Shown here: positions 4,051 to 61,444 of the stretch, piece after piece | How positions within the stretch are numbered: position 1 is the stretch's first letter | How the letters are laid out: each line of letters begins with the position of its first letter | Source of the DNA: Mustelus asterias | Taxonomy: Eukaryota | DNA length: 64,000 bases | NCBI RefSeq assembly: GCF_964213995.1 | Contig: NC_135830.1 | Location: 6,448,001-6,512,000 of the forward strand | Direction of reading: 5' to 3' | Position numbers and translations under genes: made by a program | The notes under the pieces: generated by a model | Seen by the model: only the letters and a program-made list of their open reading frames with translations | Databases searched by the model: none | Told to the model about the DNA's origin: nothing

Positions 4051-4544
4051 CACTCGTGAACTTGTTGGTGTCTCAGCAGGGCAGATGAAGCTCTGAAACC
4101 CTTCCCACACTGAGAGCAGGTGAATGGCTTCTCCCCAGTGTGAACTCGCAGGTGGGATGACCGAGTAAATCCCTCCCCACATTGAGAGCAGGTGAACGGT
4201 TTCTCCCCAGTGTGAACTCACTGGTGTGTCTGCAGGTTGGAAAACTGACTGAATCCCTTCCCACACTGAGAGCAGGTGAACGGTCTCTCCCCAGTGTGAA
4301 CTCGCTGGTGTCTCTGCAGGTGGGATAACTGAGTGAATCCCTCCCCACACTGAGAGCAGGTGAACGGCCTCTCCCCAGTGTGAACTCGCTGGTGTATCTG
4401 CAGGCTGGATAACTGAGTAAACCCTTTCCCACAATCAGAGCAGGTGAATGGTCTCTGCCCAGTGTGGCTGCGGCGATGAGTTTCTAGCAGAGATGGGTAA
4501 TTGAATCCCTTCCCACATTCCCCACATTTCCACGGTTTCTCCAT
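4051..4544 (-). pseudogene. Tandem C2H2 zinc-finger gene 1, truncated (6 finger units, premature stop in finger 4)
   Basis: ATG 4544 [17 protein letters not shown]>TGA at 4218-4220; the next finger has an internal deletion; original stop at ~4051. Confidence 0.82.
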
Positions 4545-5450
4545 GGTGCGGGTGTCCTTGTGACTCTCCAGGTTAAACAATCAGTTCAATCTCACACAGA
4601 ACACGGGTACAGTCTCTCCCCACTGTGAATGCTGCGATGTATTTTCAGGCTGTGTAACTGTTTAAAGCTCTTTCCACAGTCAGTGCACTGGAACACTCTC
4701 ACTCGGGTATATGTGTGTCACGGCATCTTTCCAGTCACATTTCTGCAAAGAAAAAGTCTGAAGCAGACAGAACAGAAAAATATTTCACCTTTTCGATTGA
4801 AAGGCCGATGGTATTCAGGTCCAGATGAACTGAATGACTGTCAGAATTTGACATGACATTTGTTCGAGATTTCTGTCTGTCAATCCTCACCTTCTCATAT
4901 TCTGTGAAAGGAGTTTACAAAAGTCATCACTGTCAGCACAGATTAGAAATTCAGAACAGACAATTCTAGTTTCTATGGAACATTCTTTCCTCTCTCATTC
5001 CCCAAAAGCTGTGAATCTCCATCCCACACACTCTCCCTCCATTCTCACTCTGCTGTATCTAATATTCACCCTCCCAATTCTCCTGAAGGTGCTGATTGAG
5101 GCTGATTGACAGATCCATGCTCACTGCTTCCTGCCCTGGACACAGAGAGCTGAAAATCTCCATGCAGGCGGCCAGACAGATCTATGTCTCTATTACAGGA
5201 CTAAAAATATGTTTAATGGATAGAATTGTTTCAGTTGGCTAAGATACAGGGGGCTACAATTGATCATGATCTTGAACTGCTTGTGAGGGTAGTCAAGCAG
5301 AGATGATCAATAACTTGGAAATGAAATTGGAGTTGCTGCAGAATGGGATCCACTCGACACTGACAGTGAGTCGGCATTAACCCGAGTGGTCCAATGGATT
5401 CCTTCTGTGCTGTAATGACTCTATTACTGGAAATATATCACGTAGCTACA

Positions 5451-6062
5451 TGTTAGGGCTCAGGTTAGAAACTCCAAAATGTTTTATGGAACCCGCCTGA
5501 ATCATACGTTTTACATCTTGAATTTGGCATGAAATGTTTCACTTCAGGTATGATTCAAATGACCCACCTTTTCACAAAGTTTACTTAAGAATATAGTTAA
5601 CATGTTTAGTAAGAAAATTAGCAAGAACTTTTAGCAATTACAAACAAAACAAAACAACAAAGATAATGCCTAACCCATCAACAGCAGAATATTTTCTTCA
5701 GGAAGGCAAGACCTGGCTTTCAGATAACCAACAGAATTTCCAAATAAAACGGGAGAGAAAGCGAGAGAGACGTCTCTTTTCAGCGTGATGCCCCTTCTAA
5801 AACTAAACTGCATCTCAGAACTGAAAATGAAAGAACTTCTGTCACCTGACCTGCAACCAGTTTTTTATCCACAAATCCCAAAGTAAAAACAAACAACCTC
5901 TATGTAAGCCACTTAAGGAGCAAATACAGGACTCTTTGTAGACAAGCCGGTGCCATAATGTAAAAAAAAACTGAAAGGTTTATTTACAACAGCAGGATCA
6001 TGATTTTGAGATTAAAAAATTTGTAAAGAAACACTAATGTCAGACGACCGTACGATATTACA
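5451..6062. mobile_element. ~610 bp insertion, possibly a solo LTR
   Basis: Absent from the paralogous intron at ~21360-21380, whose flanks align on both sides; starts TGTTAGG, ends ...TTACA; TSD unclear. Confidence 0.4.
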
Positions 6063-6568
6063 GATTAGAAATAATAATAAATGGACATTACTGCAGAACC
6101 ATACATGTCTAATCTTGCCATATGACAATACTGAACATATCTCTAACCTATATTAATTTACAGTCCCCTTAAATGTCAGATATTTCCTGGGGAAACCAGC
6201 CCTTTAATTGTGAACATTAGGAAAGGGACCTTTGAGCCAGACAAATCAATGTGTCAAGCTGAGGGAGCAAGGGATGTCAATGTCTTTAACACAGAGAGAC
6301 CTGGGCCAACCTTTCCACAATCTGCACCCTCCCTGGATTCACTTCCTTTCCCTTCAGTTGCTGCAAGTCCCCAATTTCCCCCAGAATGAGAAAAGCAATG
6401 GAAAGGTGGAGAAAACAAAGTGTTTTACTCACAGATGTTGGAACAGGAGGAAGTTTCAGTCTGTCTGATGCCCTATCGTCATTCACGCGAAAAACCCACG
6501 CTCTGATTGGCTGGAAAACCTGAGGCCTTCCGGTCCTCCAACTCTTCTCATTGGCCAGAGCTGGAGAT

Positions 6569-58770: not shown

Positions 58771-59399
58771 CCTTTGCTGTTATGAAATGTGGGTGAAAAG
58801 TAATGAGCCTCATATCCTTGCTCATGTTGCTGTGATTGTGCAGAAAGGGGATGTGTAAAGAGCTGGTCTTTGTGTGGAGATATGAACCAAGGAAATGGTA
58901 TCTGTTTGTGACAGTGACACAACCTGTGCTCACACTCAGAACAATGCACAGATATCATTCTGGTTACAGTTTGAACAGGGTCAGATCACAACTGTCGTGA
59001 ACAATTTAAACAGGAATATCTCTCGTGTAGCTGCAGCTTGTTAGATCAGAGCTGAGGAGGAGAGAGTTCTGAATCCACTGTATTATCTCTGTTCTGCAGA
59101 CTGGGTAACTTTTTAAATCGAATGATATTTCATTCAAGAAACAGGCTCACAGCCACAAGGCTGAATTGCTGTGTAACTTATATCAAAAAATCATAAAATT
59201 CAGGTACAGACCAAATAATCATGTTAAACACATGGAAACCTGTGACAATCCAGTAATAATAACAATTAACAAATTCACCAGGTAATAGGGAAGTGGTAGA
59301 CAGGATATTAAAGAAGGAATATTGAATTAGATTATGTTAAAATTACAGACCAATACACCATTACAGGCTCGGGGATGCAGATAAATTTCATATAAAAGG

Positions 59400-59782
59400 C
59401 AGGCAGTGGCAGAGTGATATTGTCGCTGGACTAGTAATCAAGAGTCCCAGGTAATACTTCAGGGACCAGGGTTCGAATCCCACCACGGCAGGTGGTGAAA
59501 TCTGAATTCAATAAAAATCTGGAGTTAAAAGTCTCATGACCATGAAACTGTTGTCGATTGTTGTAAAAAAAACCCCATCTGGTTCACGAATGTGTTTAGG
59601 GAAGGAAATCTGCCATCCTTACCTGGTCTGGCACATCTTTGACTCCAGATTCACAGCAATGTGGTTGACTCTTAAATGCCCTCTGCAATGGCCTAGCAAA
59701 CTCCTCAGTCCAAGGGTAATTAGGGTGGGTACTAAATGCTGGCCAAGCCAGTGACATCCACATCACATGAATGAATAAAAAA
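59400..59782 (+). mobile_element. Deu-domain SINE (SacSINE1-like)
   Basis: GGTTCGAATCC B box, GACTCCAGA..CACAGCAATGTGGTTGACTCTTAAATGCCCTCTG core, AATGAATAAAA tail. Confidence 0.8.
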
Positions 59783-60481
59783 TAAGTATTTCACTGAGTA
59801 CTGGAACCATGTGAGGAATTACTCTGTCTGTATTATTGCAGTGCTGTTAATAAAGTCAGTAAAAGACAATCTGTTGTTGGGGATTTGATTATCTGGTGTC
59901 TGAAACTACAAGGTTCAATATTTAGAGTCAATAAGATGAACAAAGAAACACATCAGAGCCCAATACTCCAGCTGGATATTCACAGGAGAAAGTCTGGTAT
60001 CTAATACCTTGAGTGGAGCGAACAGAGAAAGATCCCAACGGTAAAGAACCTGCAAATTATTTAGAAATAGGTTTCTAATGTTGACAGATTTCAACAGTCA
60101 GTTTCTATCACAGTGAAGTCAATGGAAGGTGAGAGATGGTTGAAGGTTCCAGATAGAAATGTAACTTGATGTTATCATTACCTTACATTGTAGATCCAGG
60201 AATGTCACACAAACATTTTCAATCTTCGTACTATTTTCAGACTGTAAAGTTAAACCTGCCGTTTTACTTTCAGTCAGGAACAGATCCCAGTTTTACACCA
60301 ATCTCTGATTTGACAGCATGTTTCCAGCATTCTTCCTGACTCTAAACATAGTTGTAAAGGAGCTTCTGTTCCATATCTAGGAGCTCTAAACCATGGAAGA
60401 GAGTGGCTTCCTCACACACATCAGGATTAACCCACACATTCAGTCTTCAATATGATTAAAAGCAGAATCTAATTCTTGCAG

Positions 60482-61444
60482 TCATTTGTGAACTCGCTGG
60501 TGTGTCACAAGCTGTGATGACTGAGTGAATCCCTTCCCACACTCAGAGCAGGTGAATGGCCTCTCCCCAGTGTGAACTCGCTGGTGTTTCAGGAGTTGGG
60601 AAGACTGAGAGAATCTTTTCCCACAAACAGAGCAGGTGAATAGCCTCTCCTTAGTATGAACTTGTTGGTGCACCAGACTGTCTGATGACTGAATGAATCC
60701 CTTAGCACACATGGAGCAGGTGAATGGCCTCTCTCCAATGTGAACTCGCTGGTGCAACAGAAGCTGGTATGACTGAGTGAATCCCTTCACACTCTCAGAG
60801 CAGATGAATGGTCTGTTCCCAGTGTGAACCTGCTGGTGTGTCACAAGGTGGGATGTCTGAGTGAATCCCTTCCCACACACACAGCAAATAAATGGCCTCT
60901 CCTCAGTGTGAACTCGCTGGTGTGGTTGAGTGAATCCCTTTTCACACACACAGCAAGTGAATGGCCTCACCCCAATGTGATGTCGCTGGTGAATTAGCAA
61001 GTCAAATGACTGAACAAATCTCTTCCCACTCACACACAAGATGAACAGTTTCTCCCCAGTGTGAAGTCGCTGGTGTATTTGCAGATACTTCTTGCTTTTA
61101 AAGCTCTTCTCACAGTCAGAACATTTAAAAAGTCTCTGATCACTGTGTACATGTTGATGTTCAGTGACCTGGGATGACTGAGTGAATTTGTTGCCACACA
61201 CAGGCCTGGTGAATGCGCTCTCCTCAGTGTGAACTTGCTCATGAGCCAGGAGGTCACATGAGTCAGCAAATTCCTTCCCAAACATGGAGCATCTGAACAG
61301 CCTCTCCTGGGTATGAACTGGCTGGTGTGTCGACAGACTGGATAACTGAGTAAATCCATCTCCACACATGGAGAAGGTGAAAGGTCCCTCCCCAGTGTGA
61401 CTGCATTGATCATGTCCCAGTTCAAAAGGGAAAATTAATCCCAT
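60482..61444 (-). CDS. ZNF gene 11, open 320-aa frame but only ~5 of 12 fingers retain all Zn ligands and spacing (degenerating gene or pseudogene)
   Basis: Cys losses (FSMC, CSMF, TRPVC, CVSG, CSES) and an in-frame deletion (GFTQPHQRVH); ancestral MEKPW start lost. Confidence 0.6.
   Translation of the reverse strand: MGLIFPFELGHDQCSHTGEGPFTFSMCGDGFTQLSSLSTHQPVHTQERLFRCSMFGKEFADSCDLLAHEQVHTEESAFTRPVCGNKFTQSSQVTEHQHVHSDQRLFKCSDCEKSFKSKKYLQIHQRLHTGEKLFILCVSGKRFVQSFDLLIHQRHHIGVRPFTCCVCEKGFTQPHQRVHTEERPFICCVCGKGFTQTSHLVTHQQVHTGNRPFICSESVKGFTQSYQLLLHQRVHIGERPFTCSMCAKGFIQSSDSLVHQQVHTKERLFTCSVCGKRFSQSSQLLKHQRVHTGERPFTCSECGKGFTQSSQLVTHQRVHK

Follow-up and report, generated by a model that had tools for sequence, protein, structure and literature searches.

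Eleven tandem arrays of C2H2 zinc fingers, between about 4050 and 61480 of the window (the 64,000-nucleotide stretch of the Mustelus asterias genome analysed here), belong to an old shark family with thousands of copies, and their predicted proteins are very probably bare finger arrays that carry no effector domain. The reading I favour, and would put at an even chance, is that the DNA-contacting residues of these bare arrays are likely diversifying against fast-changing repeat DNA, most likely transposons.

A six-frame scan combined with the list of open reading frames found six arrays intact and five broken (Table 1), which agrees with the original observation of 11 paralogs with 6 to 19 fingers, at least four of them broken or decaying. 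Finger motifs are far above chance: the cluster has 240 of them in 160 kb, and a 400-kb sample drawn from 20 large chromosomes has 6. The intact genes are of the Kruppel type, having at least five tandem C2H2 fingers with TGEKP-like linkers in one reading frame (PF00096/PF13465), a class assigned by Pfam for G2, G4, G8, G9 and G10 and by motif scan for G3. The recognition helices vary and the linkers are constant, as had been claimed, but positions +5 and -2 and the second inter-cysteine residue are variable too.

Table 1. Features of the cluster, in window positions.
Feature	Position	Strand	Details
G1, type A, broken	4050..4544	-	ATG 4544; 3 complete fingers, then premature TGA ending 4218; array runs on to ~4050
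G1 last-exon leader	4545..4901	-	2-3 decayed fingers (zf-C2H2 above Pfam cut-off at 4595-4717); in-frame TGA 12 codons before ATG; acceptor AG ends 4902
Conserved non-coding block	4961..5140	-	predicted 66-nt exon 2 (5135-5070) and 5' portion of intron 2; 94-95% identical to copies at 9186-9364 (+) and 20050-20226 (-)
CpG-island promoter common to head-to-head G1/G2	6354..7273	.	predicted exon 1 on both sides, in inverted copies; predicted donors after 6433 (-) and after 7193 (+)
G2, type A, intact	9969..10811	+	280 aa, 10 fingers, 6-residue leader, 1-residue tail
G3, type A, intact	17824..19449	-	19 fingers on 3-finger repeat; dead fingers behind stop, to ~17440; acceptor near 19799; exon 1 not located
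CpG island upstream of G3	24200..25000	.	homologous to island 33400-33800 upstream of G5
G4, type A, intact	26183..26773	-	7 fingers; acceptor 27112; CpG island 28200-29000
G5, type B, broken	30790..32180	-	stops and frameshifts in decayed 5' fingers; 3' open frame with 8 remaining fingers
G6, type A, broken	35575..36247	-	3+5 fingers, split by frameshift after finger 3; search upstream found no CpG island
G7, type A, broken	38690..39316	-	start ATG lost; stop in finger 5; acceptor region duplicated
CpG island common to head-to-head G7/G8	40400..41200	.	
G8, type B, intact	42830..43783	+	317 aa, 11 fingers, the last two duplicated; TGA in frame 8 codons upstream of ATG
CR1-type LINE, intact	47274..51154	+	ORF1 GDSL/SGNH-like 47274-48236; ORF2 endonuclease and RT 48212-51154; ends in 3' flank of G9; neighbour, outside ZNF family
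G9, divergent member, intact	51289..52830	-	513-aa ORF, 16 strict fingers (18 HxxxH) and degenerate ones; acceptor 53086; leader contains short retroelement 3' end
CpG island common to head-to-head G9/G10	55400..56400	.	
G10, type A, intact	57038..57571	+	6 fingers; decayed finger behind stop; acceptor 56707
G11, type A, decaying	60482..61480	-	start region closed; ~12 finger units, 5 strict; acceptor 61832

A 23-nt start motif by itself has 2,655 occurrences in the assembly; uncollapsed haplotypes may account for some of the 99-100% copies that lie on unplaced contigs. Relatives in Heterodontus, Cetorhinus, Scyliorhinus and Pristiophorus, with 69-88% identity over the start region, have the same tryptophan-bearing finger and the same HK-stop end as the family in the window, which supports the proposed separate shark lineage. 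The suggested birth-and-death turnover is borne out by 28 arrays within 264 kb, by the intact state of 82 of 175 arrays and by segmental duplicates. The duplicated units are longer than 10 kb and carry transposons with them; of 39 loci whose alignment could be anchored, 24 show homology that extends over several kb across adjacent transposons and ends at varying points. A mobile element carrying fingers was rejected on this evidence, since the copies have no fixed shared ends, and the alignments indicate that the family is spread by segmental duplication. Tract copying would also take place, since genes with leaders 7-17% apart can have 69-nt fingers in common without a single difference. Tandem-ZNF counts in sharks and effector-less expansions (in insects) are already known; the supplement of PMC10547256, in its accessible part, gives 475-3586 tandem-ZNF ORFs in eight cartilaginous species, among the largest counts. 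My literature search, which stopped short of subscription papers and supplementary files 3-5 of PMC10547256, found no paper describing this shark family.

In paralogs that are 2-3% apart in their introns, leaders and 3' flanks, the stretch from ATG to stop differs by 8-14%. Among 15 genes of the G3 subfamily, compared in 84-nt units, median divergence rises from 1.2-3.6% before the ATG to 10.7-13.9% after it, and falls from 8.3% before the stop to 1.2-2.4% in the dead fingers behind it. With these steps in divergence, up at the ATG and down at the stop, translation would begin at the ATG, which in type-A copies sits in a former finger linker; the sharp peak between the two is a marker, obtainable from sequence alone, of copies that are likely translated. 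This several-fold faster divergence of the coding parts likely reflects genetic conflict, possibly with transposons.

The finger fold is under purifying selection. Across 41 disjoint pairs there are no Cys/His changes in 3544 nonsynonymous sites, against 17 synonymous changes, and dN/dS is 0.15 in the core, 0.37 in the linker and 1.71 (bootstrap 1.33-1.95) at the contact residues, scored as -1/+2/+3/+6; helix sites outside the contacts also reach about 1.0. Eight pairs, five of which belong to a single subfamily, supply most of the contact signal. The predicted excess of change at contact residues stands over the 41 pairs but fails in the 26 youngest alone, where contact dN/dS is 0.61 (7 changes) and coding divergence is no higher than that of introns; templated differences in the youngest pairs are not enriched either (15/64, against 19% simulated). 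Non-CpG fourfold sites differ by 7.8% and introns by 2.6%. Synonymous divergence is thus raised as well, so recombination contributes, and fingers aligned after finger 1 may not be orthologous. I nevertheless regard diversifying selection on translated arrays as probable. Positive selection at contacts, over the 41 pairs, and clustered birth-and-death turnover are both features by which a transposon-targeting family may be judged, and both are found.

The identity of the targets is less secure, and transposons fall a little short of an even chance. The label of transposon surveillance is borrowed by analogy from KRAB- and FiNZ-ZNFs; its other basis is the cross-species correlation reported by Wells et al. 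(2023), in which ZNF and retroelement counts rise together across animals and sharks are high in both (PMC10547256, accessible part). The window's genes do lie among young retroelements, as had been noted, but this is not distinctive: as measured with three repeat probes from the window and one LINE protein, LINE cover is 16.2% in the cluster and 16.6% on large chromosomes, and SINE cover is 5.1% in both. A local link between cluster and young retroelements, in the form of enrichment, was therefore rejected.

That flat background also fits a rather unlikely alternative, in which the proteins are real and diversifying but bind satellites, their own gene clusters, promoters or meiotic sites. Paralog divergence is bimodal, with values either close to zero or higher than 8%, a pattern that fits a burst and subsequent stasis; the promoter and exon-2 blocks, conserved and common to the copies, suggest family-wide co-regulation; and the effector-less insect expansions are, in the accessible text of PMC6444547, uncorrelated with repeat content. 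The cross-species correlation weighs against these targets, however, and thousands of diversifying specificities would better fit many changing targets than a few.

It is improbable that the family is mostly neutral bloat, in which segmental duplication and unequal crossover or conversion between fingers mimic the contact excess. The long duplication units with their transposons, the modest share of intact arrays, the raised synonymous divergence and the youngest pairs' want of a contact excess are all compatible with it. Against it stand the invariant Cys/His residues and the start context and finger-1 signature kept across shark orders. It is further weakened by the dead fingers behind the stop, which diverge by 1-2% where finger 1 diverges by 10.7%, although their similarity to live fingers (0.67-0.74, out of register) is at least that of finger 1 (0.60-0.65).

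Returning to bare arrays, the leader that precedes them is closed. A strong Kozak context surrounds 105 of 107 type-A starts, and 100 of the 107 have an in-frame stop exactly 12 codons upstream; all 107 scored have one within 57 codons, downstream of the acceptor, and a pyrimidine-rich acceptor between stop and ATG was found at none. Among the 23 copies without the TGA at that position, the 12 examined are all closed by other stops, which rules out stop readthrough or an open leader for those 12. The leader diverges as introns do (3.2% and 3.3%). An RNA stem in its last 200 nt was unsupported (consensus energy -5.2, shuffles down to -4.2, pairs nearly invariant). The exon is closed in frame upstream of the ATG in every window gene that has the start, as originally claimed. 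The array does lie in one exon closed on its 5' side, with the refinement that the genes are predicted to be spliced to upstream non-coding exons, given a conserved acceptor 255-370 nt before the ATG in most window genes; G1 has two such predicted exons. In-silico splicing worked in one of the 17 genes with both upstream exons, so the exon structure is a prediction. Contigs from four runs over 3420-8330 are uninformative either way, none of the 15 joints listed (304 more exist) joining predicted exons.

Profile searches revealed no recognised effector domain at the 5' or the 3' end of the genes in the window, in line with the original prediction. In 243 upstream open segments zf-C2H2 was the sole domain above the Pfam cut-off, with no KRAB, SCAN or BTB, so the genes are not of the SCAN-ZNF or BTB-ZNF type. 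KRAB (PF01352) was found in none of 76 candidates genome-wide, in a search run without a positive control, and no KRAB lies in frame with an array, the frame being closed before the ATG; none of the 146 SCAN matches listed (150 of 604 candidates scored) falls on the window's contig. Since any N-terminal exon would meet an in-frame stop (at all the type-A starts scored, and in G8), there is no conserved short N-terminal coding exon of the FiNZ type, as judged by frame closure and not by a FiNZ profile. No non-repeat downstream exon common to the copies was found, and the terminal HK-stop was rejected as a hidden splice donor, AAA-TGA occurring in just 23 of 80. One annotated catshark isoform (P0043) has a 230-aa acidic N-terminus, which was discarded as an effector: the acidic exon has one homologue, on a 37-kb contig, and the 34 kb that follow this homologue contain no finger array. 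FiNZ was itself missed by annotation. In a subfamily outside the window the spacer has an open frame beginning at the acceptor (21 matches, 8 of them free of stops, one inspected). Some copies, and predicted proteins of other sharks, have the spacer in frame with the fingers, so an ancestor likely had a longer N-terminus. Although the in-frame spacer and the FiNZ precedent favour a hidden effector, either in a small coding exon, so far unrecognised, that splicing carries past the upstream stop or in a C-terminal tail added by splicing, such an effector is very improbable given the missing acceptor between stop and ATG, the intron-like leader, the unconserved terminal donor and the want of an array behind the acidic exon's homologue.

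If the arrays act as bare proteins, they would sit on repeat sequences and work either by occlusion or with a shared cofactor that a conserved face of finger 1 recruits, and new specificities would arise by point change, finger gain or loss and short-tract copying between paralogs. The tryptophan-bearing finger 1 varies at -1/+3/+6 (in 31 genes, 5 residues at -1 and 6 at +3), and across subfamilies it keeps a lysine in 27 of 27 and Glu+5 in 26 of 27; in other fingers, by contrast, +5 ranks with the most variable sites. Glu+5 also occurs in 15 of 17 such first fingers of other sharks. These conserved residues are a tentative candidate for a cofactor dock. A bolder and doubtful version would have sharks police transposons with several thousand finger-only proteins, finger 1's DNA face diversifying, its outer face docking one silencing cofactor and tract copying renewing specificities; if true, the effector would be built into a finger itself.

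The family bears on how cartilaginous fishes control a heavy retroelement load, and it makes testable both the need for an effector domain in ZNF-transposon arms races and what preceded KRAB and FiNZ. The shark annotations "zinc finger protein 271-like", "850-like" and "91-like" are this same family under generic names, with function unassigned; most long shark gene models resemble chimeras of adjoining genes and transposon sequence. KRAB-ZNFs are marked by TRIM28 recruitment and H3K9me3 silencing. According to the accessible parts of PMC5363842 and PMC10547256, the KRAB-ZNF clusters of sarcopterygians likewise have tandem C2H2 clusters, arrays in one last exon, duplication and decay, and selection at contacts, but the shark genes have no KRAB match in the window or among the 76 genome candidates, and a closed N-terminal frame; cartilaginous fishes are described as lacking KRAB gene families in the available text of PMC8455134. 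The FiNZ-ZNFs of cyprinids (PMC10547256, in part) are a lineage-specific expansion too, with hundreds of genes on few chromosome regions and adaptive evolution. They number about 700 against at least 2,655 shark sites, and they have knock-down evidence, whereas the shark family, which has no conserved N-terminal coding sequence, is known here from its sequence. Also comparable are the ZF271-like/APEZ genes of pea aphid and milkweed bug (PMC6444547, in part), which are finger-only and tandemly clustered, with pseudogenes and array shuffling; the shark family also has no other domain, is clustered and contains pseudogenes, a likeness of kind and not of ancestry, since the insect lineage is independent and counts more than 115 genes in Oncopeltus against thousands in the shark. 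A leader of fossil fingers and a marked first finger are shark traits not described for ZF271-like/APEZ in the available text of that paper. Finally, human ZNF146/OZF, as far as PMC8896011 is accessible, consists of ten C2H2 fingers with no other domain and binds LINE-1, so a bare array can target a transposon; its loss did not derepress LINE-1 in HEK293, and, unlike the shark family, it is a single conserved gene.

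By six-frame motif scan the window contains 11 tandem C2H2 zinc-finger (ZNF) arrays (G1 to G11, numbered by position), of which G2, G3, G4, G8, G9 and G10 have intact ORFs and G1, G5, G6, G7 and G11 are broken, in line with the original prediction of 11 paralogs with at least four broken or decaying. The ZNF family is real, large and under selection, and the window's genes are without known effector. A conserved splice acceptor lies 255-370 nt 5' of the ATG in most genes, the spacing shifting with insertions; the prediction for G1 is a gene of three exons whose upstream ORFs are all short. 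Removing 13 exact duplicates from 188 untruncated arrays left 175: 155 type A (ATG in a former finger linker), 7 type B (the type of G8 and G5) and 13 unclassified. The type-A leader contains two or three decayed fingers, and alignment with G8 places the type-A ATG where a TGEKP-like linker has its Gly codon. Of the 155 type-A arrays, 107 have a best ORF that begins six residues ahead of the first Cys, and the other 48 are mostly broken. Strong Kozak context surrounds 105 of these 107 starts. All 107 are preceded by an in-frame stop within 57 codons, at a distance of 12 codons in 100 of them, and no pyrimidine-rich acceptor lies between stop and ATG in any. With G8 stopped 8 codons before its ATG as well, the frame upstream is closed, as had been proposed. 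The codon at the leader-stop place is TGA in 114 copies and sense in 23 (exact 30-mer search), and the 12 sense copies read are all closed by other stops.

When 243 open segments upstream of the 11 genes, each of at least 38 codons, were searched at Pfam cut-offs, two dead leader fingers and nothing else passed, which upholds the view that no KRAB, SCAN or BTB exon is evidently joined in frame. KRAB gave no match genome-wide, in a search without positive control; SCAN matched at least 146 places (150 of 604 candidates scored), and none of the matches listed is on the window's contig (C71). The SCAN matches are spread over large chromosomes, many contain stops, and they are probably retrotransposon capsid remnants. 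The HK-stop end of the arrays is not conserved as a splice donor, and no common non-repeat exon lies downstream of it. Outside the window, one type-B-like subfamily (C128, C106, C613, C218 and C115) has a spacer open from the acceptor through to the fingers, which with phase-1 splicing of exon 1 could give a short N-terminal extension. N-terminally extended proteins are also predicted in other sharks, though most look like chimeras. This subfamily and these proteins suggest that the ancestral N-terminus was longer. An acidic-repeat exon at C3153:36150-36512 (-), with a donor at its end, is 52-54% identical to the N-terminus of P0043, an annotated catshark isoform; the rest of that contig has no finger array.

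Selection was measured on 102 type-A genes with at least four fingers, which yielded 41 disjoint nearest pairs; excluded were identical twins and any finger pair below 75% identity. Against all synonymous finger sites, dN/dS is 0 for Cys/His (no changes in 3544 sites), 0.15 for the core, 0.37 for linkers, 1.02 for non-contact helix positions and 1.71 for contact residues (helix -1, +2, +3 and +6; bootstrap 1.33-1.95, the pairs being disjoint but not fully independent). Against their own synonymous sites the contact residues give 1.46 (1.17-1.85). The predicted excess of change at contact residues thus holds over the 41 pairs, mostly from 8 of them, but not in the 26 youngest (0.61, on 7 changes).

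In these 8 pairs the leader diverges as an intron does (3.2% vs 3.3%), and 3' flanks, which had no role in pair choice, diverge by 1-4.5% in 6 of the 8. Finger synonymous sites are 16% divergent, and non-CpG fourfold sites 7.8% vs 2.6% for introns. Among 15 genes of the G3 subfamily, median divergence rises from 3.6% to 10.7% at the ATG and falls from 8.3% to 1.2% at the stop, dead fingers behind it staying low. This pattern probably reflects selection on translated arrays, fed in part by copying between paralogs. Entire fingers are identical between genes with leaders 7-17% apart, and 31% of the coding differences in mid-age pairs involve two alleles that are each present in other genes, vs 17% simulated (leaders, 11% vs 10%); the youngest pairs have no such excess. 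Either burst diversification or homogenisation of the flanks may lie behind the peak from ATG to stop. Neutral exchange within the array is insufficient because finger 1, the Trp-bearing first finger, diverges fast although it resembles its neighbours less than the quiet dead fingers do.

Finger 1 takes five residues at -1 and six at +3 across 31 genes, by changes often multi-base and common to other subfamilies. Across 27 subfamilies it varies at -2, +3 and +6 and otherwise keeps a signature (Trp 89%, Lys 100%, Asp 78%, Pro+1 85%, Glu+5 96%, Arg+9 93%), whereas +5 ranks with the most variable positions of middle fingers. The signature recurs in 17 fingers, chosen by Trp, from 10 predicted proteins of Heterodontus, Cetorhinus and Pristiophorus. 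Position +5 and the first strand of C2H2 fingers point away from DNA. The conserved residues can be read as a candidate cofactor surface, as common descent or as an internal salt bridge.

Three head-to-head gene pairs share a CpG island, and the predicted first exon is present as mirror copies in G1/G2. The window has six islands, with none for G6 or G11. The islands in the Table share motifs that are NRF1-, NF-Y- and YY1-like; at 40911-41049 one stands in three tandem copies. The G4 and G9/G10 islands, of otherwise distant genes, have a 154-nt promoter piece in common (28206-28359 vs 56151-56304, 98.7% identity), likely through recent conversion or promoter-segment transfer. Identity among subfamilies reaches 83-93% in the block at predicted exon 2 and intron 2, vs 58-76% for the leader's first half; the intron part of the block is alignable in 23-28 of 29 subfamilies, and the block is a possible family-wide control element.

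Table. Features of the window and further clusters of the family
Feature	Position	Strand	Remarks
Non-coding block (predicted exon 2/intron 2)	4961-5140; 9186-9364; 20050-20226	-; +; -	
Islands with common motifs	24400-24800; 28500-28700; 33350-33450; 40900-41060; 55600-55700		GCGCATGCGC-like, CCAAT, GCCGCCATCTT
Two shorter tandem repeats	33478-33629; 37866-38059		
CR1-type LINE, intact	47274-51154	+	esterase-like ORF1, EN-RT ORF2; 3' end tail-to-tail inside G9's 3' flank
Short retroelement 3' end	52960-53020		within G9 leader
67-nt minisatellite	58171-58765		about 9 copies
More clusters of the same ZNF family	C12 54.3-55.1 Mb; C23 3.3-4.7 and 11.1-12.4 Mb; C16 92.2-93.0 Mb; C75		C12, C23 and C16, large chromosomes; C75, 19 Mb

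The window's contig is 20.4 Mb long in a genome of 3.68 Gb. Twenty-eight arrays lie across 264 kb around the window, and of 20 spaced C71 samples, 10 kb each, 2 contain one. Across the genome a 23-nt start motif has 2,655 sites and its reversed control none. Because the contig-ordered list has 82 sites on C2-C24 before C71, the remaining ones lie on C71 and higher-numbered contigs. As only 8 of the 28 contiguous arrays and 72 of the 175 overall carry the motif, the family likely exceeds this count by several thousand copies, and haplotype duplicates may inflate its size. Copies have several kb in common, transposons included, without fixed ends (anchored alignment; 15 of 39 loci gave none), which indicates segmental duplication and not a mobile unit; together with the five broken genes this bears out birth-and-death turnover. 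On unplaced contigs (C119, about 793600-812400; C106, about 56000-73800) the G2-G3 region recurs in inverted orientation at 99-100% identity, through either very recent segmental duplication or uncollapsed haplotypes. The nearest named proteins of the window's genes are from sharks, in keeping with the chondrichthyan family proposed.

The genes had been placed among young retroelements, and between them do lie numerous SINE copies and a CR1-type LINE that is intact, but retroelement cover in the cluster matches that on large chromosomes, so location is no evidence for transposon targeting. CR1, HE1 and Penelope are presumptive names, the computed basis being Pfam domains only. Targeting by the shark family is nonetheless plausible by analogy: the available text of PMC10547256 describes a ZNF-retroelement correlation across species and predicted binding in other animals, and that of PMC8896011 ZNF146/OZF on LINE-1, its loss being without effect in HEK293.

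My literature search found no description of this finger-only family in sharks. In the available main text of PMC10547256 'shark' and 'cartilaginous' are absent, shark ZNF ORFs being counted in the supplement, and PMC8455134 reports that cartilaginous fishes have lost their KRAB families. Judged by the accessible parts of PMC5363842 and PMC10547256, the shark family is like KRAB-ZNF and FiNZ-ZNF clusters, respectively, in turnover and selection, yet belongs to neither. Finger-only expansions are also found in aphid and milkweed bug, according to the accessible part of PMC6444547.
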